IMG/VR virus record: IMGVR_UViG_3300030372_002234
Span: 8,876-72,875 of that record
Strand: one strand, 5' to 3'
From: a virus
Taxonomy: Duplodnaviria > Caudoviricetes
DNA: 64,000 bases
Shown: piece by piece, positions 9,001 through 23,036 of the stretch
Position numbering within the stretch: the first letter of the stretch is position 1
Layout: every line of letters begins with the position of its first letter
The notes under the pieces: generated by a model
Database searches by the model: none
Told to the model about the DNA's origin: nothing
The model's input: the letters and a program-made list of their open reading frames with translations, nothing else
Position numbers and translations under genes: made by a program

Positions 9001-12000
9001 CGAAGGTGGTCCAAAGAATAAAAAACGTCTTGAACAATTAAGAGAAGATTTTAGACGTATTAAAGATATGGAAATTCCAGAAAACGCTGCCAAACGTACT
9101 GAGTTGTTTGGTGCTATGTTTGCTCTTAGTGGCTTACATAAAGCTAAAAATCAGTGGGATACTATTACTGACGGTGCTGCAACACAGACCGCTTTGTCTG
9201 ACGCTCACTCTATTATTAAAAGTCTTGGTAAATTAGCTGATATTTCTGGCGTTGATGCTGATACCTTAAACGGTAAAAGCTTATTTACTGGTGTTGAAGA
9301 AACAATAAGATCTTCTATTAACTTAGACGTTAGATTAAACAAAAGATCTCAGCCAACAGATGAAAACCGTTTAGACGAAAACCACGGGCCTCGACATGTT
9401 GATGTTGATGTTGCAAAACGAAACGAAGACATTAGAAGAGCTAAGGTTGAAAAAGAAACTGACGATCTTATTGAACAAATCAGAGATCCAAGAACAGGTC
9501 AAGTTGATATTTCTCTTCTCGGTAACGCTGACAAAATGAGTGTTACTGTAAGAGATACGATTATTCTTCGTGTTATGGAAGACCACGTTAAACGATCTAC
9601 TTCAGGATCAAGAGTTGATACGCCTTTTTCTTCTTACCTGTCTGCAATGGCCTTTGGTAAATTAACTCCTAATCAAGTAGCTAGATACGGTGAGCTATTG
9701 TCTAGCCCGTTTGGTATGAGGCAGTTTGCTTTTGCTACTGATGGTGAAATTCCGTTAACTGCCGCAGTTGAGCATTTGTTTAACGGTGCTGATTCTCAAA
9801 GTTACTTTACTACTGGTGCTTTCCAAGACGCTATGCCTACAATTCAAGGATTGGGTCTATACTTAAGAGGTGAGTTTGAGAAAGTTATCCCAGCACTTGC
9901 TCTTCTTAAAGGACAAAACATGACCAAAGGACCGCTTGGACCTACCGGAGGAGAAACTACTCCGTGGTCCTTGTACTCTACTTTGTGGCGTGAAATGGTT
10001 ATGGACTATCAAGGTAAAGATAGAGCTAAAGAAGTATTAGTAAACAAGCTTAAATCAATGAAAGATAACGATCCTGATTTTGTTAAATTCTTAGGAAACA
10101 AAAAGAAATCAGATGAGTTTTTAGATATTATGGCTGACACTGCTGATTCTTGGGCTAATCCAAAAGAAGGTTTGTGGGCAAGTATTGTAGATTCTATGGT
10201 TCAGGCTGGAATGGTTAAAGAATCTAAACGAAACGATTTAATTGCTAATGCTGCTTATCCCATTAAGTTTAAGGACAGTATCTTTAAAAATATGACGGAT
10301 ATTGACGGCGATACTCCTAGAAGAGAACTTAGAAGAGCTATGGTAGACATAGTTAGAGGAAGGATGGAACACTCCGAAGATGTCGATATTGATATTCTTC
10401 AAATCGCATTAGCTGACGTATTACCAAGCCCGTCTGAAAGAAGAGGCAAGAATCTTGAAACGTATATTAACAATCTTCCTAACGAAATTCAAGCTTTATT
10501 AAAAACTCCTGAAATTAAAGGTAACATTGATGTGTTACTCGGGAAAATTAGAAGGGGAGACATTACTCTTAAAGATTTAGGAGATGACGTAAGAACTAGG
10601 TATATGGATACTCTTAAAAGCGATGATTTAGTTGGTAACGAAGATCCTCGTAAAAAAGCAATGCTTCTTGAGTTGTCTGAAGAGTTTAGAAATAAATTAG
10701 CTAAATCTCAAAAGACCTCTACTTTAGACTTACAGCCTACAACGGCTGCTGAGTTTGTGGCTAATCGTTATATGAATAACATTGGTTCATCCAGTTATTC
10801 GTTTGCTGGTGATGCTTTCTTATCCCCTAAACAACTTTGGGAAGACCCACGTATTGCTAAGTTCTTAGAAGATGATCCTATTTCTCTTTTAGATTCTGTT
10901 AAACGAGGTACTGCTGCTCAAGCTTTCGATAGAGCTACTTACAGTAATTACTTTGGTATTAAAGGTTTTGGAATGAAAGATCTTATTGAGCTTTACAAAA
11001 AAGCGGCTAATGGCGAAAACACTCACCATGAGTTTAATATGATGTTTATGACTAAAGATATGACTTTAGATGAGCATAAACGAACAATGACTCACGATGA
11101 GCGTCAGAAGTTTAAAGCGGGTATTGATCACATTGACAGCATGTACAAATACTCAGTAGGTACTTTATCTACTCTTGATAACCCTCATGCTGCTCCTTTC
11201 TTAAGTATTATTAACGTTATTAGTGAGTTAGGTACAGCTTTATCTATCGCCCCTCGTCTTGCTATTGCAACGGCTATCGAAGAAACGCCTATGTCTATCG
11301 GCAGCGTTCTTAAAGATAACTTGTTGGGAGCTAAGAGAGAAATGCAAGATGTTCTCGCTATAGCTAAAAGCACTAAAGATATTCATGAAACCTTAGAGGG
11401 TTTAGGCCATATTACATCTTCTGTTATGCACCAAGCAGCAGCCCTTGCGGCTAAAATGGGTGATGACGGTTCAGGATCATACGGCGTTACAGATAAAAAG
11501 AAAATTAAACAAATCTACAAATTCTTGTCTACTGGTATGAACAAACAGGTTATGGCAGCACGAAGTTTAGGTGCCATGCAGTACGTTCATAGATTAGATA
11601 GTATTTTCTCTAATATTGCGGGAGATATCTCAATTAAAGCAGAAGATACAGCTAGAGGCAAGAGCATGTCGTTTATGCGTCAAGGCACTGGAGGTTTCCA
11701 CGTTAACGCAGATGAAATTTACTTAAGATTACAAGAACAATTTGACGGTGACTTTACTAATATCACTTTAGATGAATTTAAGAAAACAACTAAAGAATTA
11801 GGAATTGATGAAGAAATTTCAAGAGATATTTTAGAGGCTGTTAAAATGGGCTTGTTTGAAGAAGACAAATACCAGTTCTTTAGAAACATGTGGGTTGAAA
11901 ATCGTGAGCAAATTTTAAGAACGGGAGTTCCTTTTGATAAATTACGATTAAAAATTACGGCTGATTACGATCAACACGTAAGAGCAGGTAAAGATGGAGA

Positions 12001-12889
12001 TGCTGTGCGAACTAGAAAACTACAAGCTTTGAACGCTATTAGAGAGCTTGTGTTTACTGCTTCCACTAAGTTTGCTAAACAGCCCTCATTAAGTACTCAG
12101 CCTTTAGGGGCTAGAAACGCTGGTGTGTTGGCTACCTTCTTTACACGCCTTACAACCTATGCTTCGTCTTCTGCTAATACCTTAAGAAGAGCTATGTTTG
12201 TTGGTCCGTCTACGTTTGCTGCTGCCTTTACTGCTCACATGATTACGGGATGGTTATACTATAAGCTTATTCAGCTTCAGGGTTTCCGTACTATCGAAGA
12301 AATGAAGAGAGAATTACAAAAAGACCCAATGGGTGAATTAACTGATGCTGTAATGTCTGTTCCGTTCCTTGGAGCTAACCAAATGGTTATCAGTATGCTT
12401 CTTCAGATGATGCGCGGAGAACGACCTGTGAACTCCAAGCCTTACGATATTGCTGCTCTTAATGCGGCTAACACTCTCTTACAGTTACCCGTAAGAGTTA
12501 CAAAAGCTGTTCAAGATATTATTAACGGTGATTGGGAAAAAGGAACGGCTAACCTTGCCCAAAGAATGCCTGTTCCCCATGCGTGGGCCTTAGCTATTGC
12601 TTTAAGAAATGCCGGAGCATTTGAAAAGGACGTTCAAATTGGTAGGCTTAGTCCTAAGTATAGAGGACAACTTAAACCACAGCCTATCCAACCTCCTGCT
12701 AGATCTGAAGTTACTAAGAACCCAATTAATACATCTGTATTAGAACCTCAGGTTGAAGTAGGTAAACCTCAGGTAACTCCTGAGCATACCAACCCAGAGA
12801 CAGGTATGACAACTCCTTCATCTGTAGAAGAAGACAGAGTTGGAGAACTTTTAAAAGAATTAGAAAGTAAAGGGTTTGAACCAGTGTAA
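41..12889 (+). CDS. Giant internal virion (ejection) protein, T7 gp16-like C-terminus, carrying an embedded single-subunit RNA polymerase domain; 5'-truncated by the window
   Basis: 4282-aa ORF whose frame stays open back to nt 2, so the true start is upstream of the window. RNAP motifs: IHDAIF (aa 1363-1368), DADSSG (aa 1494), KDVY (aa 1529-1532), KEILKSPVMTDSYG (aa 1587-1600). Degenerate zincin-like LEEIGHALGH at aa ~2947. The helical C-terminus with GVLATFFTRLTTY resembles the end of podovirus ejection proteins. Confidence 0.8.
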   Translation: MVKRAHDGKTVGRYRAASAVGKTLRGIGEATMFSRRLLPTQIVSELFFPSLKFLRHSRAMKKGDDAADAATSWWKYLKNENYLGDSVGRRMLHRSIGGAMEGVVWGSIEYGVMEDYQDRTNSLIFGNDAAAALALDRDRSGAYGHMLMFGVAFGGLGGPLIGETFTQVGKIPQGMMIGGMKMSQWADQVLSPGGQEAMGYAKAPFAKRFGARIVQGTGNAVTWLGGGNQYSVEQQYLMYKALSKISQTELLKMAEADDNGVAMTKVLQDIEDRISKYQWAASEAGLDIREAFKSAEDVMDGKPEKERTSSAFIKQVEDHLEGQEIAARGKAGFRSRVRQAVLAEFQERMRSGQDVGIMEKAMEEADPNNPPSDPEVSNLNKTVTDIQEESAKVSKEREAVVQEQARRKEGLEPDEPARTPEQIEGEFAEQVKLRDEETIAAKTEENNKAKAELKELNKSKRKGVSKKQFKKDNPRVEELETTIRETDKFLADAEEAKKVSIEEAEAKKNAELEEAKKDLQNLSDDELTERLNDLDVILGERLYELESEAYAYWQANPEKFVKYIAYFRKKVLEERLNGDTPNANGMPPMFAAIDGLEVDGAVNMIQLFAPGTYFTRDELIRVRRQLKTEDQRFITAALEGSQDGEFDLTKAEARALTTRIKDILVEEAVNKDYTSEEMRFMNAIINEPSAETIEKAFASTRVETYVNNMMIDAAKNNKVLTADDLMLYNQDPELVIETFVKAKQDLAKLMVEVRDGNYTTILRSQGKNVLDTLGEGVEGYKKSGKGITNKWKADFLAKYFSENEEFTATKAEMLEVFEVNDEFVGPTLQQPARTSEQMDLVKARIKDLLEDVVNQQAEKIKMSEVRARRKRAGYAKQREKTQNAYAKWYESSTKLSNKTKADQDKVVFQRARNKLKEMRDSINKAVDAEWENGTIKADWIARQSKRLDVQYRPNFAHARPLVKVLSMLQAHLLGTARWKRDSLSGFFVDTTITRKDLISILETAEEGYGFIANIDEIAIGARVGEGYDGEKVIQALLTKLKSTDQTLGNVLSAGFEKNLGIHFGKKLPYATDVFGSRGDLRNLMTSLKGQLEGKQAYARGKAGAGEYAGNRGDGNIDEATWNSSFNEEFITRLGYIATEGSQRARNLLAALDGLSPEKQIATALKFINEFIPEGQNKLKSFSQLGGGTEAIDWVGPKRAAQAVLSALSTERPYANKVAESYVVKGERNRPERARRLSNIDEDGIYIQHDSDPIIQRNYERATADHAMNWLLKKLDNPDLDAEARKDIYKKLQAWLENFPEQAVLNDAVRAALPQQGLSFVPRWMVTGPDADIIGKNFGTGIEGQIQYNLAMSKVNTPALMATIHDAIFVGLPSMMTKSGDVAASPSWNFKVGDDHVLRGIGFGFQTLIARKGSFEDALNHVHQIMYGYKGLVEEARASYNTMSQKRVEGLTGKTFDTNDEFVGWMAQEFPKLDTAKKEAIIKELFPALASSYMDADSSGSNIMLALVMGQDTDFGNLWKTIKEADEGNKDVYNEAHSEAVINAYKHVESYVLERIEKRDFNGKAGLEEVYNDLGKVFTVLKDEGLSKEILKSPVMTDSYGIGVAKMKESIIESFGKPSVKEELIKRGLFTEEDYDAKIYQLSDTLATLLSKGVDSKLGGWIKQSLFAKGGLDNKKLGEILNNWRRTESGQRVRTGDEQRSVADSNNFMSDMTSGSTTANFKAGNSEEISMFDNMFDEVTRQISVLAEITGDVESAKAHVNNLVNLITDDLKGDKNVEKLMAEGKFAEAQREIDIAFNKMSEESVMVKALNSYMAQGYGFDETAFRGQLEAILGKGKADTINQILGRLNPLARQAMKGQMFRQLAISAETRNFVKNNFDQIADKILRLQAEESPLGLGKLVMEPLSEEDIRQRTILQAVKELSEIYDLEKLELEVGGERFKNLTWEDYFKQWEKDSGTGLEIRAAAIDAFKNVRWKAMLDEIDQRLAENKESNDAEVMSLEMQKEAIEQTMKMLARIIDATNEGRPTDAAKRLELVTESRNVVNTGSMPGLLGALPQTTTRRFEGAPIPILRMAQLEQTAEVKQLRSLERGAQQADTTKAVFSDAELSRPLSPEDLADVQTYKGSMYDVPLASKPIYGLQDSPSPFIAAELLQAELTNFANQVGGVAKKYLSEGNFFKLYNTHRHYVAAQEAMKADTVYRDIAKSLSEKREQLLKDRPTSDALDTESFLNQSEDYVNLKLELDKAQDNALMVRNEVLAIDGSWAKDVEERAWSIMSMSGETLETVSNGRTWGEAVNKTALDNQRSGNMIAWLAPPAKTPGEVILDGSNTAKLRYEDKSETAMLPRSAHSVDASAGLYMSNYIQVTGWFEGLKSILKREPTSREITVFARWADAKARFDVDEQNKLLSNFGKEIAPYKDLTEKQLTDIMGRGQDIAAQNFRDANNAIAYMAKPVIREQVKESLKAQLGDDFEAKVAERTGGLTLEELMNFKRKLTDENTTIFVNPLGVVIAPHKVVGDGIVNLTMQERVLALQGIQNQTVVDRMRLATMFDRKLPMNSELSSRMGGYDPFTKFNGMTIDKARRNAAVLTDALEVLQGRRSTEKLSVAIDRRNVVRRGTLTEAPMKFVKFSNEINEEGAKDARMLLAENTLEMLPLSEDSLKKINALRNTFDPYDEADWANGIQVAMMVSKDSAYNVFKQRVLAEERLSARSRDSNPDEFNKQFDARWEKVKPIVDELRNELNILNRDSDVVSNFLNRNDVFFGETAIDSTTHETFNSLYSQKIKIEQAVQMELLNRTLVPDNTSFDREVQFIKPMADLNGIIPRSDGTQLKPNTIDARIQDYPKTDGHLMLTHRLDTFVNTGILNKDQASVLKLAFWNYDTEALGKIFDPMKTDSPLRFDVLDGVDYMGKYEQLNKAFTDGVVHRIGLLRNMSSKFDDPSSLGPAAVVLEEIGHALGHKLDSDTQINFIERVKKIEMATIEEAEKLLYGEGGPKNKKRLEQLREDFRRIKDMEIPENAAKRTELFGAMFALSGLHKAKNQWDTITDGAATQTALSDAHSIIKSLGKLADISGVDADTLNGKSLFTGVEETIRSSINLDVRLNKRSQPTDENRLDENHGPRHVDVDVAKRNEDIRRAKVEKETDDLIEQIRDPRTGQVDISLLGNADKMSVTVRDTIILRVMEDHVKRSTSGSRVDTPFSSYLSAMAFGKLTPNQVARYGELLSSPFGMRQFAFATDGEIPLTAAVEHLFNGADSQSYFTTGAFQDAMPTIQGLGLYLRGEFEKVIPALALLKGQNMTKGPLGPTGGETTPWSLYSTLWREMVMDYQGKDRAKEVLVNKLKSMKDNDPDFVKFLGNKKKSDEFLDIMADTADSWANPKEGLWASIVDSMVQAGMVKESKRNDLIANAAYPIKFKDSIFKNMTDIDGDTPRRELRRAMVDIVRGRMEHSEDVDIDILQIALADVLPSPSERRGKNLETYINNLPNEIQALLKTPEIKGNIDVLLGKIRRGDITLKDLGDDVRTRYMDTLKSDDLVGNEDPRKKAMLLELSEEFRNKLAKSQKTSTLDLQPTTAAEFVANRYMNNIGSSSYSFAGDAFLSPKQLWEDPRIAKFLEDDPISLLDSVKRGTAAQAFDRATYSNYFGIKGFGMKDLIELYKKAANGENTHHEFNMMFMTKDMTLDEHKRTMTHDERQKFKAGIDHIDSMYKYSVGTLSTLDNPHAAPFLSIINVISELGTALSIAPRLAIATAIEETPMSIGSVLKDNLLGAKREMQDVLAIAKSTKDIHETLEGLGHITSSVMHQAAALAAKMGDDGSGSYGVTDKKKIKQIYKFLSTGMNKQVMAARSLGAMQYVHRLDSIFSNIAGDISIKAEDTARGKSMSFMRQGTGGFHVNADEIYLRLQEQFDGDFTNITLDEFKKTTKELGIDEEISRDILEAVKMGLFEEDKYQFFRNMWVENREQILRTGVPFDKLRLKITADYDQHVRAGKDGDAVRTRKLQALNAIRELVFTASTKFAKQPSLSTQPLGARNAGVLATFFTRLTTYASSSANTLRRAMFVGPSTFAAAFTAHMITGWLYYKLIQLQGFRTIEEMKRELQKDPMGELTDAVMSVPFLGANQMVISMLLQMMRGERPVNSKPYDIAALNAANTLLQLPVRVTKAVQDIINGDWEKGTANLAQRMPVPHAWALAIALRNAGAFEKDVQIGRLSPKYRGQLKPQPIQPPARSEVTKNPINTSVLEPQVEVGKPQVTPEHTNPETGMTTPSSVEEDRVGELLKELESKGFEPV

Positions 12890-12987
12890 ATTAAAAACCC
12901 AGTGTATTGTAACTAAAGGTTACTCACTACATATTTTATTTGTTATTTTATAATTAGGGATCACTATAGATAACCGGGGGGATAACT

Positions 12988-13194
12988 ATGGAAGAGATCA
13001 TTATTACTATTGCAATCAGTATTGCTGGACCCGCTCTACTGGGCATCTTTGGGCTGATCTGGCGGTTATCCGCTAAAGTGAGCCTTCATGAAAAAATGAT
13101 TGAAGCACACGACAGGCGTATCAGGGATAACCTGAGCCGCCTTCAGAAACTAGACGATAAACAATACTCTATTGTTAAAAATATTAAAATGTAA
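12988..13194 (+). CDS. Small membrane protein (N-terminal transmembrane helix plus coiled coil; XhlA/holin-accessory-like)
   Basis: Hydrophobic IIITIAISIAGPALLGIFGLIW followed by a charged coiled coil; G-rich SD-like run upstream; same architecture as ORF 59188-59367. Confidence 0.6.
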   Translation: MEEIIITIAISIAGPALLGIFGLIWRLSAKVSLHEKMIEAHDRRIRDNLSRLQKLDDKQYSIVKNIKM

Positions 13195-13231
13195 TTTTAC
13201 TGGCCCCTTGGGCCGCTGTCAGGAGTCTACC

Positions 13232-13768
13232 GTGATTAAGTACCTTGTTCTGGCTACGCTTCCGTTGTTACCTATGGATGATACCGATAACGATAATTCA
13301 ATAATGGACTATCAAATCTATCAGAATGGTCCTCGTACTGTGTACGAAGGGGCTGCTAAACTCAAGTGGGACGAAAACGTAAATGCTTGTGTTGAATACA
13401 CTTTCGATCTCGTACCGGGGCGGTTGGCGGGATCTGCTATCTCTTCCGATCCGGGTCAACCGATGCTTCCTTTCGATGAGGTCTTGATCTTTGATGATGA
13501 GATCTACGTTAGTTGGGAGCGGAACCGCACTGACTTATGGCCTACTCCTACGGAGTGCCATCGGAGATTCCACTTTTTTATTATTAAAACAGAATTTAAT
13601 GCTGATGACCTCAGTGAACTCTTAAGTGACTGGGGTCCACCTTATGTGGTTGACGCTCCGTGGCCTGAGGAGGATTACACCTACCTCTCGCCTTGGGATC
13701 TTAATCTGGATACTGTGGTGGACGGGAAAGACTTAGCGATTCTTCTAGCAGGGTGGAAAATCGATTAG
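13232..13768 (+). CDS. Secreted-type protein with dockerin/EF-hand-like Ca-binding repeats
   Basis: GTG start 6 nt after AGGAG; signal-like IKYLVLATLPLLPM; C-terminal FNADDLSELLSDWGP and WDLNLDTVVDGKDLAILLAGW. Confidence 0.7.
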   Translation: MIKYLVLATLPLLPMDDTDNDNSIMDYQIYQNGPRTVYEGAAKLKWDENVNACVEYTFDLVPGRLAGSAISSDPGQPMLPFDEVLIFDDEIYVSWERNRTDLWPTPTECHRRFHFFIIKTEFNADDLSELLSDWGPPYVVDAPWPEEDYTYLSPWDLNLDTVVDGKDLAILLAGWKID

Positions 13769-13853
13769 GGGGTCAGGAATTTACAGAGGGGTAAATATGA
13801 ACAACTGTGTTCAGTTTCCCCCCTTACCCCCCGATTCTGAAAGGAATCAAACA

Positions 13854-14441
13854 ATGTCGTATTCATTTGACTGCTTCTGTACTGCGTTCTCTATGCTTGT
13901 TCATGCTATTGCTGGTAATAAATCTACCCTTGACGCAAAAGCCGACAAAGAAAAGGCTGCAAAGCTTGCTCTTGAATTCTTTAAGCAAATGGGACTTGAT
14001 GTTATTACCCCGCTTAATCGAATTCGCGGTGCGGTCAAGCACGAGTTGCTTGGCGGCACGGCTGATTACCTTGTAATCCACTTCCCTACACAGTGGATTT
14101 GCATTAAGGGTTATGTCTATAGGGTGACTACCATCTGTGAGGTCCATCAGTATAGGATCGAGAAAGCTCAGGACGCAAGAGACTGGGCTTTCGAGGTTGA
14201 GAAGCCTTGGCGATTCCAGACTATTGTTTGGGATGGCGAGACCGGCGAACAAGTTGGCTATGAATTTGAAAGTGACTGCTACGAAGATGTCACTGATATG
14301 CAGATGATTACCCAAGCCACCAGTGATTTTGTCGAAGCCGAAGTGCAAGAAATTGTAAAGCAAGTCACTGATGAGGTCGTTGAAGAAGTATGTGATGACC
14401 TTCGTCGCGCCGGTATTCTTGACGATGACCGGATGAACTAA
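13854..14441 (+). CDS. Hypothetical early protein
   Basis: In-frame ATG at 13854 after AAAGGA SD; acidic C-terminus; no recognisable family. Confidence 0.7.
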   Translation: MSYSFDCFCTAFSMLVHAIAGNKSTLDAKADKEKAAKLALEFFKQMGLDVITPLNRIRGAVKHELLGGTADYLVIHFPTQWICIKGYVYRVTTICEVHQYRIEKAQDARDWAFEVEKPWRFQTIVWDGETGEQVGYEFESDCYEDVTDMQMITQATSDFVEAEVQEIVKQVTDEVVEEVCDDLRRAGILDDDRMN

Positions 14442-14519
14442 ACTCGACTGAGCGAGTATAAACAGCCATTAGGCTCAGTGCGTCGGGCTGTACCCATAAC
14501 TGGGTACGGCTCGGGTTGG
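14442..14519 (+). ncRNA. Pistol self-cleaving ribozyme (copy 1)
   Basis: P1 ACTCG/CGAGT; loop ACTGAG pseudoknots with CTCAGT; conserved ATAAACAG, TTAGG and GCG; P2 CCA/TGG; 14-bp P3; G-T cleavage dinucleotide at 14515-14516. Confidence 0.9.
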
Positions 14520-14525
14520 ATTTTG

Positions 14526-14537
14526 TTTCCACTATCA
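14526..14537 (+). promoter_or_regulatory. TTTCCACTATCA box (copy 1 of 4; candidate phage RNAP promoter or leader element)
   Basis: Same box at 14871-14882 and 15875-15886, and TTCCACTATCA at 16527-16537; 33-35 nt before an ATG in three cases. Confidence 0.55.
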
Positions 14538-14560
14538 CTCGATTCTGAAAGGAATCAACT

Positions 14561-14821
14561 ATGATTGGTCACTACGATGCCGTTCGCGTTATTATCCGTG
14601 CTCTGTTGCATAAGGAGGACAGGCCGTCTGATGTGCTCCTAGAGATCCTCAATATGGCTATGACACGCCTTGCTGAAGAGCGTGAAGTGGTCTGCGAGGA
14701 AGGCCCAATTTGGGCACCCGATGGCATGGACAGACGCTTGTCTGAAATCGAAGACAAGACATACGCGCTTCTTGACTGCATCGAAAAGCTTAAGCAGCCG
14801 TACGTTAACAGGGATTTCTGA
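14561..14821 (+). CDS. Hypothetical early protein
   Basis: 86-aa ORF with AAAGGA SD and the shared early leader module. Confidence 0.7.
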   Translation: MIGHYDAVRVIIRALLHKEDRPSDVLLEILNMAMTRLAEEREVVCEEGPIWAPDGMDRRLSEIEDKTYALLDCIEKLKQPYVNRDF

Positions 14822-14828
14822 TCACCCA

Positions 14829-14873
14829 CAAGCGTGTCCTCTACCGGGGATGACGGCTTGTTTTGTTTTGTTT
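14829..14873 (+). terminator. Hairpin followed by a T-rich tract (terminator- or processing-site-like)
   Basis: CAAGC..TCCTC-TACC-GGGGA..GCTTG followed by TTTTGTTTTGTTT. Confidence 0.45.
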
Positions 14874-14904
14874 CCACTATCACCCGTTCTCGAAAGGAGA
14901 ACAC

Positions 14905-15138
14905 ATGGCTTTGTACAGCAAAAAAGAATTGGACAAGTTCAGAGAAATCGCTCGATTCTTCAAGGGATTCGATACTAGCATTCGATCTGGCTCATCGTCA
15001 GAGGCTATCGATGTTGTTATCGGAATGGTCAACCGTGACCGTCCTGTTGTCGAGTCTCTCATTAACCCACGCAATTCATTTGAAATGCAGAGTGACAGTT
15101 GCCCTGAGACGGGCATTGTCTACGGCGATCTTTCCTAA
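14905..15138 (+). CDS. Hypothetical early protein
   Basis: ATG at 14905 after AAGGAG; MALYSKKELDKFREIARFF... Confidence 0.7.
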   Translation: MALYSKKELDKFREIARFFKGFDTSIRSGSSSEAIDVVIGMVNRDRPVVESLINPRNSFEMQSDSCPETGIVYGDLS

Positions 15139-15163
15139 CCTCGCTCTTGAAAGGAGCAACAAC

Positions 15164-15640
15164 ATGGGTGTTTCATTCATGCTCTACCGTACTGACACCG
15201 AAGGCAAGCACCAGCCTGTCGAAGGAGAACGCTTCGAGATCCACTGGTCCTACTCCAGTTGGGCCTACTTCAGGGATGGTGTCCTCAACGCCCTGAAGGA
15301 TGCATACGTTGTGGCCACCAAGGTCCGCAACGATGCTCGTCGGTCGTGGGAGAACGAAGAGAACAAGTCGGACAAGTTCTGGCTTGACAGCTTCGAGGAT
15401 GCTGCGGCTAACGTCCAGCGTCTTGCTGACCTCAAGACCTACTGGGTTGACGGCGACAACCCTGACGAGCAGGTCGATGCGGTCTGGTCCTTCGACAAGG
15501 CCAAGGTGATCGAGTGTCTCTTTGAGGCTCTGGTCATCGACTCTGAGAAGTCGGTGCATCCGTTCGTCGAACGGGACCGTCTCGCGTGGGTGCTGCGTTA
15601 CCTCACGGTGAACGATGGCGATCACCTTGTGGTTGCCTGA
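15164..15640 (+). CDS. Hypothetical early protein
   Basis: ATG at 15164 after AAGGAG; GC-rich codon use. Confidence 0.75.
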   Translation: MGVSFMLYRTDTEGKHQPVEGERFEIHWSYSSWAYFRDGVLNALKDAYVVATKVRNDARRSWENEENKSDKFWLDSFEDAAANVQRLADLKTYWVDGDNPDEQVDAVWSFDKAKVIECLFEALVIDSEKSVHPFVERDRLAWVLRYLTVNDGDHLVVA

Positions 15641-15646
15641 ACCCAC

Positions 15647-15725
15647 ACTCGTCTGAGCGAGTATAAATAGACGTTAGGCTCAGAGCGGCAGGCCGCACCC
15701 TTCACTGGGTGTTGGTCTGCGTCGT
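15647..15725 (+). ncRNA. Pistol self-cleaving ribozyme (copy 2)
   Basis: P1 ACTCG/CGAGT; TCTGAG/CTCAGA pseudoknot; ATAAATAG, TTAGG, GCG; P2 ACG/CGT; long P3; G-T at 15721-15722; compensatory changes relative to copy 1. Confidence 0.9.
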
Positions 15726-15907
15726 GAAAGGAGATCAAGGATGGTCTCAGCTAAGGAAGGCACTTTCCCTTATTGGATGTTTAACCCAGACGGCCCTTGC
15801 GGGGGCCAGCCCCTCACGGGGCAGTCTGGGGTACGTGACCCTTCGATCCTTGCGGGTAGTTTCCCCGCAGGGAGTTTCCACTATCATGCTCTCGAAAGGA
15901 GCAACCC

Positions 15908-16426
15908 ATGTCTTATTCTGCATCGTTCATGTTCGATCACTGTCGCCTCATCTACAACGTTCAGGGTGAGGACGGCTATCTGTTCAACATCAACACCGTG
16001 ACTGGCAAGCTGGCTGAGTTCTGCTGGCTGAAGCCCTCCACGGTGGAGTTCGAGGTGAACAACATCAGTGATGATACCGTCGAACTCCAGCGGACCAAGC
16101 CGAGAGCCGTGAAGCTCAAGGTCCAGCCTCTCCGCAAGCTGGAGTACTTCTTCAACTGGTGTACCAACGAGCCGCTGCCCTGCGCTGCCCGTGCCATCCA
16201 CACGCTGCGGAGCAAGAAGGACAGCATTCGCTTCGTTACTGCTGGCCCTGTCGGCGTTCCGGGTGGTCTTCAGGTCTGCTTCCGTCAGTCTCCCGGTCCT
16301 GTGACCGAGTGGCAGCCCTTCACGGCTGGCTACGGTGGCGAGTGGCTCCCAATGAAGCTGGAGCACATGTCTCGCACGTTCAACCTGTGGCAGGACCGCA
16401 TCCTGAAGGAAGCCTTGGCTGACTAA
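15908..16426 (+). CDS. Hypothetical early protein
   Basis: 172-aa ORF with AAGGAG SD and the early leader module. Confidence 0.75.
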   Translation: MSYSASFMFDHCRLIYNVQGEDGYLFNINTVTGKLAEFCWLKPSTVEFEVNNISDDTVELQRTKPRAVKLKVQPLRKLEYFFNWCTNEPLPCAARAIHTLRSKKDSIRFVTAGPVGVPGGLQVCFRQSPGPVTEWQPFTAGYGGEWLPMKLEHMSRTFNLWQDRILKEALAD

Positions 16427-16444
16427 TCGGTCTTTGCTGCGGTA

Positions 16445-16508
16445 CGAAGACCGAAGAGCCACGACCGAAGGCCCGAAGTCACTCAAACCGAAGACCGAAG
16501 GCCCGAAG
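16445..16508 (+). repeat. Short direct-repeat array (C)CGAAG x7
   Basis: CGAAG at 16445, 16452, 16466, 16474, 16489, 16496 and 16504; GACCGAAGGCCCGAAG twice (16463-16478, 16493-16508); lies in a ~320-bp non-coding gap. Confidence 0.8.
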
Positions 16509-16748
16509 ACCCGTCCTTGCGGGTAGTTCCACTATCACCGGACTCGCATAGAGGCATTCCCCGCGTGTAGTCCCCGCCAGAAGCCGTAGAATCCCGACTG
16601 CGGTCCTCGCGTGGACTCGATGAGTTCCTCCCCGTTTACTTTTACTGTCCGTTAGGCGGCCTCTCCGGCCCTCTCACGGCATTTCCGGGTTCACCTGTTC
16701 GTATGGTGGCCCCTGCTTATTTCTCTCCGTTTCTCGAAAGGAAACAAC

Positions 16749-17036
16749 ATGTCGAAGATTAGATTGGTCGTTCGTTCCACTGCGGAGCTTAACGAAGAAA
16801 TCGCAAAGAAGAAGGAAGCCCTTCTCAACGTCCGGGCAGACCTCGAAGCAGCACGGAAGCGTATGGACAGCCTCAGGCGTGATTTCCATGAGGCCCAGAT
16901 GGATGTCAGGACTTTCACGGATCTCAAGGACACCTTCGAGGAGCGTCTCGGTGAGCTTCAGTTCTTCCTTGGTCAGAACGACATCTACGAACAGATGGTC
17001 GATCAGGGCATCATTGCCGAGCCGGTTGAAGATTAA
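16749..17036 (+). CDS. Hypothetical coiled-coil protein
   Basis: 95 aa with a heptad-like charged helix; AAAGGA SD. Confidence 0.75.
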   Translation: MSKIRLVVRSTAELNEEIAKKKEALLNVRADLEAARKRMDSLRRDFHEAQMDVRTFTDLKDTFEERLGELQFFLGQNDIYEQMVDQGIIAEPVED

Positions 17037-17047
17037 ACTAACCCAAC

Positions 17048-17074
17048 ACTGCTGGGCATCAGTATAAACTGCCC
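17048..17074 (+). ncRNA. Small H-type pseudoknot motif
   Basis: Stem 1 ACTG/CAGT; loop GGGCA pairs with downstream TGCCC; linker ATAAAC shared with the pistol ribozymes; intergenic. Confidence 0.45.
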
Positions 17075-17098
17075 TTTCATTTTCAGAAAGGCATTCAA

Positions 17099-17359
17099 AT
17101 GCTTGAAGAGTTTCGTGTCTTTGTTTACGATGACTTCGTTAAGGCACGGGCTGGTCATCCAGCTATCCGTGTCTGGAATTTTGAAACCGAAGAAAAGGCT
17201 CTTAAGGTAGCCAAGGAGCTATGCGAAAAGTTTAACGAAGAGAAGGATTACATGAAGAATCTCTGTCGTTATTCTGTTAAGGTGCATCGCTTTCACGGAT
17301 TTAACCTGAAGTTTAGAACGGAGCATCCCTTGTTTAATTCATTAGAGGAGTACAAATGA
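17099..17359 (+). CDS. Hypothetical protein
   Basis: 86-aa ORF with AAAGG SD. Confidence 0.7.
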   Translation: MLEEFRVFVYDDFVKARAGHPAIRVWNFETEEKALKVAKELCEKFNEEKDYMKNLCRYSVKVHRFHGFNLKFRTEHPLFNSLEEYK

Positions 17360-17625
17360 TCGAAGAAGAGTACGACTACCGTGATCACCATGTGGTGGTT
17401 GAGATTGAATTGATGGAGGACAACCAGAAGATCTGGTACTTAGTGACCTGTCCTGACGGGGAAGAAAGGACTGTAGATGTCTCCCCTTACGGTAATCAGA
17501 ATGAAGTCGTAAAGAAATGGATTGATATGTTCTATCAACACGGTGAGTATTTTAGCCGTATTGGTATTGGTCCCTTGACTATGTATGATTTAGAGTTAAT
17601 TGATATTTCTCAGAAGATTTCCTAA
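17356..17625 (+). CDS. Hypothetical protein
   Basis: ATGA overlap with the upstream gene; GAGGAG SD. Confidence 0.75.
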   Translation: MIEEEYDYRDHHVVVEIELMEDNQKIWYLVTCPDGEERTVDVSPYGNQNEVVKKWIDMFYQHGEYFSRIGIGPLTMYDLELIDISQKIS

Positions 17626-17626
17626 A

Positions 17627-17660
17627 GGGGTCCGCCAAGGTGGCGGGCCTCTGTTTATTT
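17627..17660 (+). terminator. Intrinsic terminator-like hairpin
   Basis: GGGGTCCGCCA-AGG-TGGCGGGCCTC followed by TGTTTATTT. Confidence 0.6.
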
Positions 17661-17687
17661 CTATGCCATAAAGGCAGAAAGACTATT

Positions 17688-18020
17688 ATGTCTAACTACA
17701 ACACTAGCGTTTCTTCACCCGTCCGTGGCCGCATCACCCGCAAGGACGGCAAGCCGTTCACTGCAAAGGTGACCTTCTGGATTAACAAGAAGGAGCAGGG
17801 CGAAAAGAAAACTTGGGAAGTGGACTTGGAAGGTCTGACTATTCTCGAAATGATTGATCGAGTCAGGCAGATTGAAAAGAACTACAAGGCCAAGTACGGT
17901 ATCAAGTGTACTGTGTGGCGTGTGAACAGTGGCCCTAGCCTGTTCATGGACCGTATCAAGGACATGCAGCAGAGCCGACGCGAGTGGGCTATCGCTCAGG
18001 CCGCCGGAGAACAGCGTTGA
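17688..18020 (+). CDS. Hypothetical protein
   Basis: In-frame ATG at 17688 (MSNYNTSVSSPV...), downstream of the terminator hairpin. Confidence 0.7.
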   Translation: MSNYNTSVSSPVRGRITRKDGKPFTAKVTFWINKKEQGEKKTWEVDLEGLTILEMIDRVRQIEKNYKAKYGIKCTVWRVNSGPSLFMDRIKDMQQSRREWAIAQAAGEQR

Positions 18021-18037
18021 GCGGCTGCTCGACTCAA

Positions 18038-18092
18038 GAGGTATCCCGAGTCCCCTCTGAGGCATACGTCTCAGAGGGGGTCTCCGGGCCTC
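18038..18092 (+). other. Long imperfect hairpin at the early/middle boundary
   Basis: 12-bp core CCCCTCTGAGGC-ATAC-GTCTCAGAGGGG, extended by CCCG/CGGG and GAGG/CCTC. Confidence 0.6.
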
Positions 18093-18246
18093 ACACGGAA
18101 CCTGTTGACTTGGGGGCTGCCCTCCTTGTTTTTATATTAGTAGTTTTATTATGCTATAGATTACTCAAGAATACTAAGGATTGATCCGATGATTATGTAG
18201 CGTCCAAAAAACCCACGTTATTGGTATAGCTACATAAGGAAAAGCT

Positions 18247-18627
18247 ATGAGTAAACTGTATGACCGTGATGGATTCTGCGTGTTCGGTACACAACCTAAA
18301 GCTACTACGCTTGTTGTGAACGACCGTGTGTATCTCATCGTTGACCGTAGGCGTAACCAAGATAACCTGAATGAAGCACAGCAATTGCACATGCAAGGGC
18401 TGCTGAATGTCCATGATCCTTATGTGGACTGGAGGGCTGTCACTGACAAGAAAGGAAAGTCTACCGATAAGGGAATGCTGAATGTATTCCCATCCATTGC
18501 ACAGCAGTGGAAGAATCAGATGAAAGGTAAGTACATTAAACCCAAGACTTATATGACTGATAACCCTGATAAGATGGGTGAAGATAAGCATTGGGAAGTT
18601 CTTAAGTCTTACCTAGAAAGGAATTAG
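18247..18627 (+). CDS. Hypothetical protein
   Basis: 126-aa ORF with AAGGA SD. Confidence 0.7.
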   Translation: MSKLYDRDGFCVFGTQPKATTLVVNDRVYLIVDRRRNQDNLNEAQQLHMQGLLNVHDPYVDWRAVTDKKGKSTDKGMLNVFPSIAQQWKNQMKGKYIKPKTYMTDNPDKMGEDKHWEVLKSYLERN

Positions 18628-18628
18628 A

Positions 18629-19108
18629 ATGTTTAAACATATACCTGATGTGATTAGCGATGAAGAAGCTGTTTCTTTAATTAATGAAACAAGAAACGGA
18701 GAGGTCTTCAGGCTTTTGCGTCACGGCGGTAACGATATCGTCGAAAGATTAGTCAGTATTGTAAAAGAACACGCGCCTGCTAAAACAACAGGCAAAGCGT
18801 ACTGGCGTGTAGAATCTAAAGGTGACGGACACGATTGGCATTATGATGGGGCATATGAAAATGGTAAGCCCAATCATATGGCATGGTGTCAGTACTCAGC
18901 AGTTGTATTGCTATCAGACCCAAGTACATTCAATGGCGGTGAATTTGAATACCGTAATTCAGAAGATGAAATAGTTTCTTTGAAAGAAGAACTCCACAAG
19001 AATATGATTGTGTATTCTAGTGGGATTGATAATGATCCTGTTCTGCATAGAGCTAACCCTCACGGTGAGGGTAGACGCTTTGTGCTTCTCATGTTTTTTG
19101 AAGGTTGA
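18629..19108 (+). CDS. 2OG-Fe(II) oxygenase (prolyl 4-hydroxylase-like)
   Basis: DWHYD (HxD), YSAVVLLS, FNGGEF, distal VLHRANP His and GRRFVL Arg. Confidence 0.85.
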   Translation: MFKHIPDVISDEEAVSLINETRNGEVFRLLRHGGNDIVERLVSIVKEHAPAKTTGKAYWRVESKGDGHDWHYDGAYENGKPNHMAWCQYSAVVLLSDPSTFNGGEFEYRNSEDEIVSLKEELHKNMIVYSSGIDNDPVLHRANPHGEGRRFVLLMFFEG

Positions 19109-19111
19109 AAA

Positions 19112-19285
19112 ATGATTTATTCTATCGTTCGTGAGCTTGAAGATAACAAGCTTTGGTTCAACGTTGTTTCTGTAGCTGACGGTAAATTCAAAGATGGTTT
19201 CGATAACCGAGAGGATGCCGAGCGATTCGTAGCTCACCTCGAAGCCGATGATGCCACTGGTGTCCTCGAACAGGAGCGTAAGTAA
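19112..19285 (+). CDS. Small hypothetical protein
   Basis: 57-aa ORF read from the sequence (MIYSIVRELEDNKLW...); TAATG coupling to the next gene. Confidence 0.55.
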   Translation: MIYSIVRELEDNKLWFNVVSVADGKFKDGFDNREDAERFVAHLEADDATGVLEQERK

Positions 19286-19527
19286 TGTGTAAGAAACTAA
19301 AAACGGAAGACATCATCACTACTAAGGATCACCTCCAAGACATTGACTACCTTGCAGGTAGGGCACTCATGATATACAATGAGAAGTATGAAGGTGAGGC
19401 TGATTCATGGTTGGATGATATCAAGGACATTCAAAGAAAATGTTCTATTCTATTGACTAGAGATTTCACTAGGCGGGCTGATGCCCGTGCAGCAAGATAT
19501 GCAAAGCTTACAAGAAAGGAAGAGTAA
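19285..19527 (+). CDS. Hypothetical protein
   Basis: 80 aa; TAATG coupling at both ends. Confidence 0.65.
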   Translation: MCKKLKTEDIITTKDHLQDIDYLAGRALMIYNEKYEGEADSWLDDIKDIQRKCSILLTRDFTRRADARAARYAKLTRKEE

Positions 19528-19733
19528 TGTTTATTGCAGAGATTATGTATCGTGGTGACTTGCATGAGACCCTTTATCTCAATGACAGGGAGCCGTCCAA
19601 TCTGGAAGTTATCAAACAAGAAATTGATTTGAACTATCCCGGCGAGGAGGATCACGTTCGAGTCACTCTTATTAATCAGGATACAGATGAACAAGAGGAT
19701 ATTACCGGAGAAATAACATGTTCACAGAAATGA
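19527..19733 (+). CDS. Hypothetical acidic protein
   Basis: 68 aa; translationally coupled. Confidence 0.65.
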   Translation: MFIAEIMYRGDLHETLYLNDREPSNLEVIKQEIDLNYPGEEDHVRVTLINQDTDEQEDITGEITCSQK

Positions 19734-20386
19734 ACGTTGAGATGGTAGATAGTATGGGAGGAGACTTAGATGTAGTTAACGCTGCTCGTGTCTCTTTCTC
19801 TAAAGAAAGTAATGAGCTTGGTAATAACGATATTAAACTTATTAACTATCTCGCCAAGCATAATCATTGGACTCCCTTTGCTCATTGCTTTGTAAAGTTT
19901 AGGGTTAAGGTTCCTATCTTTGTAGCAAGGCAGTGGTTCAAGCATACTGTTGGCTTTGCTTACAACGAGGTAAGCAGACGCTATGTATCAGGAAACCCTG
20001 AGTTGTTTGATGTTAACGTATGGAGAGGTAAACCTGAAGATAACATTAAGCAAGGATCTAGTAGCAAAGTAATATATGTTACTAAAGAAACTACTGAGCT
20101 TATGGAAATAATGGTAGCTCACTACAATATTCTTATCAAGCAAGGTATTGCACCGGAGATGGCACGTATGGTGTTGCCTCAGGCTACAATGACTGAGTAC
20201 ATCGTAAGTGGTAGCCTTGCGGCATGGGCTAGGTTCTACAACCTCAGGGCAGACGATCACGCGCAGCATGAAATTCGCTGGTGTGCTGAACAGATCGGTG
20301 AGAAGATGGTAAAGTATTACCCCAATAGTTGGGCTGCTCTTTGTAACAACTGTAAGGAATGGAACTTTGGCGAAGAAGAACATTAA
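19718..20386 (+). CDS. thyX: FAD-dependent thymidylate synthase ThyX
   Basis: VVNAARVSF, HWTPFAH, ARQWFKH...NEVSRRYV ThyX motif, APEMARMVLPQ, HAQHEIR. Confidence 0.95.
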   Translation: MFTEMNVEMVDSMGGDLDVVNAARVSFSKESNELGNNDIKLINYLAKHNHWTPFAHCFVKFRVKVPIFVARQWFKHTVGFAYNEVSRRYVSGNPELFDVNVWRGKPEDNIKQGSSSKVIYVTKETTELMEIMVAHYNILIKQGIAPEMARMVLPQATMTEYIVSGSLAAWARFYNLRADDHAQHEIRWCAEQIGEKMVKYYPNSWAALCNNCKEWNFGEEEH

Positions 20387-20477
20387 GTTTAAAGAGTTTA
20401 GAGGTCGCACTGCTGGTAAGCCAAGGCGATCTAAAAAGAATAAGTACGGCCTACGAAAAAGTGGGAGAAAGAATTGA
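20367..20477 (+). CDS. Small basic peptide
   Basis: TTG start 8 nt after AAGGA; MAKKNIKFKEFRGRTAGKPRRSKKNKYGLRKSGRKN. Confidence 0.35.
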   Translation: MAKKNIKFKEFRGRTAGKPRRSKKNKYGLRKSGRKN

Positions 20478-20480
20478 CGT

Positions 20481-20684
20481 ATGAGTCCGAAGGATCATAA
20501 CGATTGGCGTAAGACTGATCGTGCTAAAGATAAGATTAAAGAACAAAAGAAAAAGAATAATAAGCATCAGAAGAAACATTGGTCCGAGTGGGCTGGTGAC
20601 AACCTTTCTCATCCAGATGACTCAGTAGATATGAGTCAACAAGAATGGGAAAATTTCCTTGAAGGAAACTCAGATGATAAATGA
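20481..20684 (+). CDS. Hypothetical protein
   Basis: 67-aa charged ORF. Confidence 0.55.
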   Translation: MSPKDHNDWRKTDRAKDKIKEQKKKNNKHQKKHWSEWAGDNLSHPDDSVDMSQQEWENFLEGNSDDK

Positions 20685-21012
20685 ACGAGATTGTATTCGT
20701 TATAGTATTCACCTTCCTGAAATTATTAGTAAAACAGATAGCATTAAAAGAGATGAACTAAAGAAATTAATTCTTGATGTTTCTCCCTTTACCGTCATAC
20801 GAGAAACAGATCTAACGTGTATGATTAAAGAAGGCGAAGTATCTTTTGTTAAGTGGACAGTTTCTGTTTCTTTGAGCGATGCTGAAAAACTATTTAACTT
20901 AATGACTTGGTGGGCTGATGAATATACTACTGACAGACTAAACACCGAAGGTAAAATGATGAATGACATTATGATAGAAAAGGAATTTATAAGAAGAATT
21001 TATATGGGATAA
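20674..21012 (+). CDS. Hypothetical protein
   Basis: In-frame ATG at 20674 after AAGGA. Confidence 0.6.
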   Translation: MINERDCIRYSIHLPEIISKTDSIKRDELKKLILDVSPFTVIRETDLTCMIKEGEVSFVKWTVSVSLSDAEKLFNLMTWWADEYTTDRLNTEGKMMNDIMIEKEFIRRIYMG

Positions 21013-21016
21013 TTAA

Positions 21017-21136
21017 ATGAATGGAGCAGATGGATTTTTATTGTATCAGTTAGGTTGTTTTGATTACTTTTTGTTTCTTGTTTTAATTGGTATTCTTATT
21101 GGCTTTATTGGTAAAGCCTTTGATTTATTTGACTAA
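21017..21136 (+). CDS. Small membrane protein
   Basis: 39 aa with a hydrophobic stretch FLFLVLIGILIGFIG. Confidence 0.45.
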   Translation: MNGADGFLLYQLGCFDYFLFLVLIGILIGFIGKAFDLFD

Positions 21137-21151
21137 GAAAGGTCAACTACT

Positions 21152-22132
21152 ATGTCTCACGAAATTACTGCTACCGACTCCGCCGTCTTTCAGGGAACCA
21201 AGGCTTGGCACGGGCTGGGCTACGTTGTTGAGGATGATATGAGTCCCCTTGCTGCTGTTGAAACGGCTGGTCTTGATTGGTACGTCCACAAGACTGATGG
21301 TGTGTTCGGTTATACAGATAAGGGTTCAACTGTCATGGATCATAAGCGATGTATGACATACCGTGAAGATACCAAAGAAGTTCTTGGTTACGTGTCTGGT
21401 GATTACAATGTCTTCCAGAATGTGGAACTTGCCAAGCTTGCAATGTCTGTTTCAGAGAAAGCTAATGTTGAATCTGCTTTCTCTATGATGGGCGGTAAGC
21501 GTATCGTGCTGCTACTCAAGGGCGGCAGCATTGAGGTTGGTAACATGAACGATGTGCTTGATGATTACTTCTGTCTTGTTAATGGTCACGATGGTAAGTT
21601 CTCTCTTCGTGCATTCGGTACGTCAGTGCGAGTGGTGTGTAACAACACGCTTCAGATGGCACTGTCACAGGCCAGAGGACAGACTTACTCAATTAGTCAC
21701 AACGGTGACTTTGAGACTAAGCTCGATGACATGCGTCGAGCGTTGGGTCAGTACACTAAGTCACGCGACTGGTTTGCTACTACTGTTAACGAACTTGCAA
21801 AGAAAGAAGTTAATACCAGTATGCTTGAAACGTTCTGGATGGAATCATTCGCAATGACTGTGGGTGATGATGTCCTTAAGGATCGCGACCGTTCAATCAA
21901 GGAATCCATCAAGTTCCTTGAGAACGTCAAGGTTACTTTTGAACAAGAACGTGACGCACTCAAGGTGCCTGCTTCCATGTGGCTTGCTGCTAACGCAGTG
22001 ACCAACTACGTGCAGCACAAGACTGGTGACCGTGGGCGCAAGCCTTCGTATGAAAGTCGGGCTGGCGACGTTCTTATGGGCAAGAGGGCTGACCTCTCCC
22101 GTAAGGTGATGAAGCACGCCATGACCGTGTAA
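21152..22132 (+). CDS. DUF932 family phage/plasmid protein
   Basis: AWHGLG N-terminus, VLGYVSGDYNVFQN, NGHDGKFS, VRVVCNNTL, W-x-A-x-NAVT. Confidence 0.88.
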   Translation: MSHEITATDSAVFQGTKAWHGLGYVVEDDMSPLAAVETAGLDWYVHKTDGVFGYTDKGSTVMDHKRCMTYREDTKEVLGYVSGDYNVFQNVELAKLAMSVSEKANVESAFSMMGGKRIVLLLKGGSIEVGNMNDVLDDYFCLVNGHDGKFSLRAFGTSVRVVCNNTLQMALSQARGQTYSISHNGDFETKLDDMRRALGQYTKSRDWFATTVNELAKKEVNTSMLETFWMESFAMTVGDDVLKDRDRSIKESIKFLENVKVTFEQERDALKVPASMWLAANAVTNYVQHKTGDRGRKPSYESRAGDVLMGKRADLSRKVMKHAMTV

Positions 22133-22139
22133 TCCCCCC

Positions 22140-22155
22140 GCCCCCTTCGGGGGGC
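22140..22155 (+). other. GC hairpin just upstream of tRNA-Lys
   Basis: GCCCCC-TTCG-GGGGGC; UUCG tetraloop. Confidence 0.5.
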
Positions 22156-22160
22156 AACCC

Positions 22161-22233
22161 GCCCTCATAGCTCAGTTGGTAGAGCATTCGGCTTTTAACC
22201 GATCGGTCGCAGGTTCGAGTCCTGCTGAGGGTA
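22161..22233 (+). tRNA. tRNA-Lys(UUU)
   Basis: Acceptor GCCCTCA/TGAGGGT; D-arm GCTC/GAGC; anticodon loop CTTTTAA; T-loop TTCGAGT; CCA not encoded. Confidence 0.95.
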
Positions 22234-22248
22234 TTAAGGAGATTTATT

Positions 22249-22344: not shown

Positions 22345-22348
22345 ATTA

Positions 22349-22931: not shown

Positions 22932-22935
22932 TAAT

Positions 22936-23020: not shown

Positions 23021-23036
23021 TTAGAAAGGAGTATTT

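Follow-up and report, generated by a model that had tools for sequence, protein, structure and literature searches.

Pistol ribozymes came to light because they are associated with phage genes and with other ribozymes (PMC4604425). Their cut site is the two-nucleotide junction between P3 and P2, and cleavage leaves a 2′,3′-cyclic phosphate and a 5′-OH (PMC4604425). What pistols do biologically is not yet known, as is true of most self-cleaving ribozymes of bacteria and phages, and processing of polycistronic transcripts has been proposed in a review (PMC6765202). In prophages, multiple hammerhead ribozymes are found on either side of single genes or short gene blocks, and their cleavage has been shown both in vitro and in vivo; the authors who described them suggest that they process transcripts and raise circular products as a possible outcome (PMC3088659).

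The locus described here, in which two pistols on the + strand lie around three small ORFs of a phage, belongs with the clustered, gene-flanking phage ribozymes of the type reported by Perreault et al. in 2011. Its two elements are like the pistol class (RF02679; Weinberg et al. 2015; Harris et al. 2015, PMC4604425) in P1, the six-pair pseudoknot, the AUAAA linker, P2, the variable P3, the two-nucleotide G-U junction, and the association with phage genes. They differ in having a long P3 (13 bp, interrupted by a bulged U in copy 2) and a P2 of only 3 bp, and they reside in a marine phage with a T7-type RNA polymerase rather than in Firmicutes or their phages. The prophage hammerheads (Perreault et al. 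2011, PMC3088659) are likewise co-oriented, spaced 0.4 to 2 kb apart, and accompanied by small phage genes of varying identity, and they have likewise been linked to long-transcript processing and, more speculatively, to circular products. In contrast to them, the present ribozymes are of the pistol class, lie in the early region of a lytic-type phage rather than in a prophage, and would be cut at the 3′ end of the ribozyme, keeping the catalytic fold on the upstream message.

Dunn and Studier reportedly found that RNase III cuts the T7 early mRNA between cistrons and that a stable 3′ structure remains on each upstream message. The present locus resembles those sites in its predicted intercistronic cuts within a polycistronic early transcript, in the 3′ structure, and in its T7-like layout. 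The analogy is functional only: the cuts here would be autocatalytic, made without a host enzyme, and would leave a 5′-OH and a 2′,3′-cyclic phosphate, whereas the T7 ends are a 5′-phosphate and a 3′-OH. In synthetic insulators such as RiboJ, a self-cleaving ribozyme 5′ of a ribosome-binding site trims off variable RNA to leave a constant leader. The arrangement at this locus, with a ribozyme directly 5′ of a ribosome-binding site, is similar but natural and of another ribozyme class, and insulation is suggested by mosaic breakpoints only.

The phage record and its two pistol copies

The window, that is, the whole stretch of 64,000 nucleotides that was analyzed, comprises bases 8876 to 72875 of a complete IMG/VR virus genome of 72,875 bp. 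The DNA was found in marine metagenomes, and the record is that of an uncultured marine phage. All large ORFs are carried by the + strand, and the genome layout is T7-like, with the following gene order in the record.

Giant ORF, then about 20 small ORFs, then three tRNAs, then an 859-aa single-subunit RNA polymerase
After the RNA polymerase: primase-helicase, DNA polymerase, ribonucleotide reductase, portal, and major capsid protein

The 859-aa RNA polymerase is of the T7 type, with only ∼25% identity to the polymerases of cultured Autographiviridae or of any isolate, which indicates that an annotated relative of the phage is absent. A blastn search of positions 13000 to 17000 against cultured phages returned no match. 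The three tRNA genes are located at window positions 22161 to 23020, just 5′ of the RNA polymerase gene. The giant ORF (window positions 41 to 12889) accounts for 4282 aa in the window and for an open frame of 4728 aa in the full record. It shows a weak, sub-threshold match to PF00940, the T7-type RNA polymerase family, at 4646 to 4921 (17.9 bits, E = 2.8e-5). Judging from its sequence, the giant ORF may encode an N4-like virion RNA polymerase, beside the separate 859-aa polymerase.

Searching the whole 72,875-bp record with RF02679 gave two matches, both above the gathering score of 34.5 bits. Copy 1 was matched at 14442 to 14520 (65.4 bits, E = 1.2e-9) and copy 2, which lies 1205 nt farther 3′ on the same strand, at 15647 to 15697 (49.2 bits, E = 6.2e-6). 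No other ribozyme class was found in the window by Rfam search at E values up to 1. The elements and their parts are as follows; R1 is a covariance model introduced below.

14442 to 14519, + strand: pistol ribozyme copy 1, predicted cut G14515/U14516 (Rfam and R1)
15647 to 15725, + strand: pistol ribozyme copy 2, full length 79 nt (Rfam, model R1, sequence reading, and orthologues)
15647 to 15662, + strand: P1 hairpin of copy 2, 5 bp, ACUCG/CGAGU
15652 to 15657, + strand: P1 loop of copy 2, UCUGAG, 6 nt, forming the 5′ pseudoknot strand
15671 to 15673 with 15723 to 15725, + strand: P2 of copy 2, ACG with CGU, 3 bp
15679 to 15684, + strand: 3′ pseudoknot strand of copy 2, CUCAGA, six pairs with 15652 to 15657, 100% paired in the orthologues
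15688 to 15720, + strand: P3 hairpin of copy 2, 15688 to 15700 with 15707 to 15720, 13 bp, U15712 bulged, loop 15701 to 15706
15721 to 15722, + strand: predicted cleavage site of copy 2, G15721/U15722, at the family-model position and at the same site by script

The Infernal alignment of copy 2 ends at 15697 because of a local exit through the long, bulged P3, the minimum free energy fold of which has a z score of −3.8. The full element, 15647 to 15725, was read directly from the sequence, including the part from P3 through the 3′ strand of P2 that the Infernal alignment misses. Copy 2 possesses the P1 and six-pair pseudoknot of the pistol class, the conserved core (AUAAA linker, UUA-G-GC, and GCG 3′ of the pseudoknot strand), and a P3 that is separated from the 3′ strand of P2 by exactly two nucleotides, which in the class are usually GU. 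Its linker sequence is AUAAAUAG, and at model positions 1 to 42 of the Rfam alignment it carries every upper-case consensus letter. In crystal structures of the class, the conserved G next to the pseudoknot strand on its 3′ side (G15685 in copy 2, G14480 in copy 1) reportedly serves as the general base. By identity, as read from the sequence, it is near certain that both copies are pistol ribozymes, and their cleavage is predicted.

The two copies are direct repeats with 82 to 84% identity. An earlier note on this DNA had described copy 2 as sharing its core with copy 1 while differing in three compensated places, and the sequence agrees on each. Both copies match RF02679, copy 2 with every core consensus position kept; copy 1 has A-U as its outer pseudoknot pair and CCA/UGG as its P2, where copy 2 has U-A and ACG/CGU; and most positions in the lower half of P3 differ, with pairing kept throughout. 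The cut positions it had named, G15721/U15722 and 14516, coincide with the sites predicted here. Separately, a consensus scan of 12800 to 23200 ranked the P3 of copy 1 and the GUUGGAUUUU that follows it (window positions 14483 to 14524) as the best terminator-like site, a candidate that was rejected because the U run begins 6 nt past the stem.

Covariation and selection on structure

Relatives were found as homologues of ORF2, a gene between the two copies, and comprise four further marine lineages (L111; L119/L120; L123; L127/L128); a metagenome scan with the ORF2 alignment yielded only L118, a duplicate of the L111 phage. All four carry orthologues of copy 2, which lie at 7488 to 7566 in L111, at 1822 to 1900 in L120, and at 2110 to 2188 in L123, those in L119, L127, and L128 being clipped by contig ends. 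A MAFFT alignment of all four copies misplaced a gap; copy-1 and copy-2 orthologues were analyzed separately and then by covariance model.

Over the four full-length copy-2 orthologues, the hand-drawn structure including the pseudoknot was 99.1% paired, compared to 33 to 49% for slid-partner controls, and none of 500 shuffles matched the observed pairing. Six pairs show double compensatory change, two in P2 and four in P3: in L111 relative to the window, two of the three P2 pairs are altered on both sides (P2 of L111 is CCA/UGG), as are four pairs of P3. Among the copy-1 orthologues (L111, L119/L120), a U-A pair in P3 has changed to C-G in L119. The compensatory changes in P2 and P3 show that selection acts on the pairing of the RNA rather than on identity of the DNA.

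Covariance model R1 was built only from the copy-2 orthologues with the full structure. It scored 109.5 bits over positions 1 to 79 of copy 2, a member of the training set, and 78.1 bits end to end on copy 1, which is outside the training set. R1 also matched over 100 further viral pistols, the alignment spanning the entire model in nearly every case, and these end-to-end matches indicate that the full-length reading of copy 2 reflects the architecture of the family. In the R1-derived alignment of 95 distinct sequences, the structure including the pseudoknot was 97.6% paired, with strong covariation in every helix; this alignment was fitted to R1, which favors the structure, and the fairer comparison is with slid controls, which were 30 to 44% paired. 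The pseudoknot columns were 97.9% paired and five of their six pairs covary, the swap of the outer pair that distinguishes the two copies being the commonest variant in the family (UA in 47, AU in 35). These comparisons support copy 2 as a real second pistol ribozyme under structural selection. The earlier note had argued for such selection from the two copies, and the double changes, the shuffles, and the family-wide covariation bear it out.

Genes, stop codons, and promoter-like motifs around the ribozymes

The genes and signals in the neighborhood of the two copies are the following.

13797 to 14441, + strand: upstream early ORF, 214 aa; its stop ends one base before copy 1; the L111 homologue is 71% identical
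14525 to 14537, + strand: promoter-like motif GTTTCCACTATCA, 9 nt past the predicted copy-1 cut; exact repeats at 14870 and 15874
14561 to 14821, + strand: ORF1, 86 aa, acidic; carried by none of the relatives found; no Pfam or PHROG match
14905 to 15138, + strand: ORF2, 77 aa; conserved in five of five lineages
15164 to 15640, + strand: ORF3, 158 aa, acidic; terminates 6 nt 5′ of copy 2
15726 to 15748, + strand: Shine-Dalgarno (SD) sequence GAAAGGAG, AUG at 15741, and hairpin; begins 4 nt past the predicted copy-2 cut

Pfam and PHROGs searches of the six small ORFs around the ribozymes gave nothing significant, the only matches being to two PHROGs of unknown function (E = 0.004 to 0.01). From its sequence, the upstream early ORF probably has its true start at an internal ATG, 13854. 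ORF3 is found with 86 to 94% nucleotide identity in L119/L120 and L123, and L111 carries an unrelated 162-aa ORF instead. Related sequence was found in three metatranscriptome runs, in the form of short contigs that were assembled from relatives and cover only ORF2 and ORF3; a contig of one relative has an 18-nt in-frame insertion (ACAAGTCGG twice) after window position 15362, in ORF3.

The stop codon of the upstream gene is offset from the first ribozyme base by 0 at copy 1 and by −6 at copy 2. In relatives, the ribozyme position is constant while the upstream stop shifts: it lies at +1 in L127, at +10 as a UGA within the P1 loop of copy 1 of L119/L120, and at +20 as a UAA within the AUAAA linker of both L111 copies. 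For comparison with the family, IMG/VR was scanned for the pistol core pattern, and the resulting 110 records were searched with the Rfam model. Two to five pistols, always co-oriented and 0.37 to 6.5 kb apart, were present in 13/110 pistol-bearing viral records (about one in eight), a count that, like the others of this census, is descriptive, as the contigs are not phylogenetically independent. The pistols of these records lie around one or a few small ORFs, and in several of them a single ORF of ∼100 aa fills the gap and ends 9 to 10 nt inside the next ribozyme. By analogy, the layout with multiple pistols is the pistol version of the multi-hammerhead arrangement known from 2011 (PMC3088659). 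The stop of an upstream ORF of at least 60 codons falls at 0 to +20 in 36 of the 88 distinct viral pistol contexts (∼41%), and the offsets in L003 to L110 form sharp peaks at +1 (a UAA ending on the first A), +10 (UGA, P1 loop), and +20 (UAA, AUAAA linker). On the downstream side, an SD-preceded ORF starts 50 nt or less from the cut in 18/84 contexts.

Downstream of copy 2, a hairpin of 15731 to 15737 with 15742 to 15748 pairs the SD sequence with codons 2 and 3 (−8.0 kcal/mol, z = −2.8). The GAAAGGAG/AUG and the hairpin are conserved in L111, L120, and L123, and in L111 and L123 the hairpin is kept via one-sided changes, as judged by eye. A conserved UCUCAG past the downstream AUG was considered as an alternative pseudoknot partner and is better explained as the 3′ strand of this hairpin. 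Other early genes have their GAAAGGAG sites in small hairpins with GAAA-type loops (14541 to 14556, 14886 to 14902, 15143 to 15157, and 15887 to 15903), unlike the site after copy 2 (15731 to 15748) with its pairing to codons 2 and 3. The first 19 codons of the upstream early ORF as listed (window positions 13797 to 13856) also hold a typical SD hairpin, GAUUCUGAAAGGAAUC, and in L119, L123, and L127 this 5′ stretch lies ahead of unrelated genes. The SD-sequestering hairpins across the early genes may constitute a shared translational control. Farther 3′, positions 15750 to 15880, between copy 2 and the next promoter-like motif, are GC-rich and dense in hairpins (fold z = −2.6), and they are 94% identical in L123 and different in L111. 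An 86-aa ORF at 15741 to 16001 overlaps the next gene and looks weakly coding past its first 10 or so codons; the region from 15741 may consist of a short leader peptide with structured RNA behind it.

The 10-nt core of the promoter-like motif, TCCACTATCA, occurs six times in the record and on the + strand only (14528, 14873, 15877, 16528, 22492, and 35631), compared to a chance expectation of ∼0.14 (4^10, 146 kb of two-strand sequence). The copies are mostly located just 5′ of early-gene ribosome-binding sites, and one lies between the first and second tRNA genes. The motif is conserved in L111, L119, and L123. It resembles the CACTATA core of the T7/SP6-group promoters, which makes it a candidate phage promoter. 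If TTTCCACTATCA is a promoter, many transcripts would begin just after copy 1, and copy 1 would act on read-through RNA only.

Copy 2 is present in five of the five lineages and copy 1 in three. The earlier note had proposed searching relatives for conserved placement, and copy 2 is indeed placed alike in them. The stretch between the copies holds ORF1, ORF2, and ORF3 in the window; ORF2 and the unrelated 162-aa ORF in L111, with a spacing of 847 nt; and ORF2, a novel 118-aa ORF, and ORF3 in L119/L120, where the spacing is again 1205 nt with genes other than those of the window. L123 is without copy 1 and has a hairpin, a U-rich tract, and the motif 5′ of ORF2, with copy 2 kept. In L127/L128, ORF2 has an AT-rich, sigma-70-like region on its 5′ side and a copy-2-type ribozyme directly 3′ of it. 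A plain hairpin with a U-rich tract was observed at the equivalent junction in relatives without copy 1. Homology with the relatives begins exactly at the first ribozyme base (14441/14442 and 15647), and the gene 5′ of the ribozyme is swapped, which indicates that the ribozymes behave as independent, conserved junction elements between exchangeable cassettes and not as the two ends of one unit.

Possible roles in early transcripts

Taken as a whole, the locus is best read as a pair of independent intercistronic mRNA processing sites, a reading to which we assign a probability of about 60% and under which cleavage would take place in vivo. Both elements would be functional pistols on a rightward, polycistronic early RNA, each cutting on its own. 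Each would fold once transcribed, at or just after the upstream stop, and cut at 14515/14516 or 15721/15722. Because the cut site is at the 3′ edge of the fold, the ribozyme would stay on the upstream message, of which ∼75 nt of ribozyme with the 13-bp P3 would form the 3′ end, bearing a 2′,3′-cyclic phosphate, as a compact protective structure. The downstream message would be released with a 5′-OH, since P2 is only 3 bp. From the cut to the AUG, copy 1 would leave a leader of 45 nt and copy 2 one of 19 nt. As the 5′ end made by copy 2 would lie 4 nt before the SD sequence, the next gene would receive a fixed, short leader with any upstream cassette, and removal of the swapped cassettes would presumably let the downstream SD hairpin fold alike in any context. 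The effects on message stability and translation are extrapolated from the rules of RNA decay in E. coli and B. subtilis. Where the host has RNase J, a 5′-OH can be destabilizing, so the cut might either stabilize or destabilize the message.

Cleavage might instead be conditional, with a ribosome at a stop at or inside P1, or the SD hairpin, modulating it and thereby tuning the decay or translation of the neighboring genes. The recurrence of stops close to P1, at −6, 0, +1, +10, and +20 here and in ∼41% of viral pistol contexts, is consistent with such control, because a terminating ribosome would cover P1 and the pseudoknot loop, and every early gene of this phage has an SD-sequestering hairpin. 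However, pistols cleave at ∼10 per minute or faster without cofactors (PMC4604425), so the cut would usually precede any ribosome, the more so if the RNA is made by a fast T7-type polymerase. No conserved ligand-binding or alternative-fold element was found, and a stop beside the ribozyme is equally expected from simple compaction of the phage genome. We therefore consider a switch unlikely, while giving it some weight.

The sharp homology breakpoints at 14441/14442 and 15647, where the upstream gene is replaced, would also be expected if the 65- to 80-bp ribozyme sequences and the repeated motif served at the DNA level as boundaries for cassette exchange, with RNA cleavage secondary. The ORF1 indel, bounded by two copies of the TTTTGTTTCCACTATCAC motif, and the repeat-like similarity of the two copies fit this idea as well. 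A role in recombination would nevertheless favor identical sequence, whereas the compensatory changes in P2 and P3 point to selection on RNA pairing, and conserved linkers become breakpoints automatically, with no need for a dedicated function. DNA-level linkage as the main role is accordingly rather improbable.

The earlier note had gone further and proposed that the two ribozymes jointly release 14516 to 15721, with its three ORFs, as a discrete 1.2-kb RNA whose circularization is conceivable. A host RtcB-type ligase might close such a circle, since these ligases accept 5′-OH and 2′,3′-cyclic phosphate ends. Co-oriented ribozymes do flank a gene block here, the 1205-nt spacing recurs in L120, and circular or spliced products have been raised for tandem hammerheads (PMC3088659). 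The predicted ends, as the note had said, would follow the established chemistry of the class (PMC4604425) and would suit RtcB. The comparative data, however, do not treat the pair as a unit. Copy 1 is absent in L123, the L127 lineage has a single ribozyme by ORF2, and the spacing drops to 847 nt in L111; as gene content between the copies differs per lineage, the equal spacing in L120 appears coincidental. In ribozyme-delimited circular RNAs (viroid-like agents, retrozymes) the segment between the ribozymes is cut out and ligated to a circle, and the pair is conserved as a unit; such conservation was not found here. Two copies of the promoter-like motif also lie inside the segment, as does a hairpin with a U-rich tract, so many transcripts would not span from cut site to cut site. 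The RtcB, Rnl2-type, and T4 Rnl1-type ligase families were not found in the complete phage record, and by eye no complementarity joins the ends of the segment. Paired excision is thus very unlikely, and nothing points to a circle. We give a slightly smaller chance still to a specific form of this proposal, in which two cuts in read-through transcripts would free the three-gene RNA and host RtcB would close it into a circular, exonuclease-proof early mRNA. If true, the closed segment would be the first circular protein-coding mRNA from a DNA phage with pistol ribozymes.

That copy 2 is an inactive relic, a decayed duplicate that has lost cleavage, might be suggested by its lower, clipped Rfam match (49 versus 65 bits) and by a P2 limited to 3 bp with a G-G mismatch at the fourth position (by eye), but is hardly credible, given that every conserved core position is consensus, that the lower score was traced to the long, bulged P3, that the short P2 also occurs in copy 1 and many family members, and that copy 2 is better conserved across lineages than copy 1 and carries the six double compensatory changes.

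The locus leaves current knowledge unchanged, but it makes a clean test case for the role of pistols. A widespread marine phage lineage has two diverged copies within a single early operon, the ribozymes start at stop codons, one of them is predicted to cut 4 nt before a ribosome-binding site, and natural variants without one copy or with other cassettes are available. The census, with its multi-pistol arrays and fixed stop offsets (+1, +10, and +20), may also be useful to those working on pistol ribozymes.
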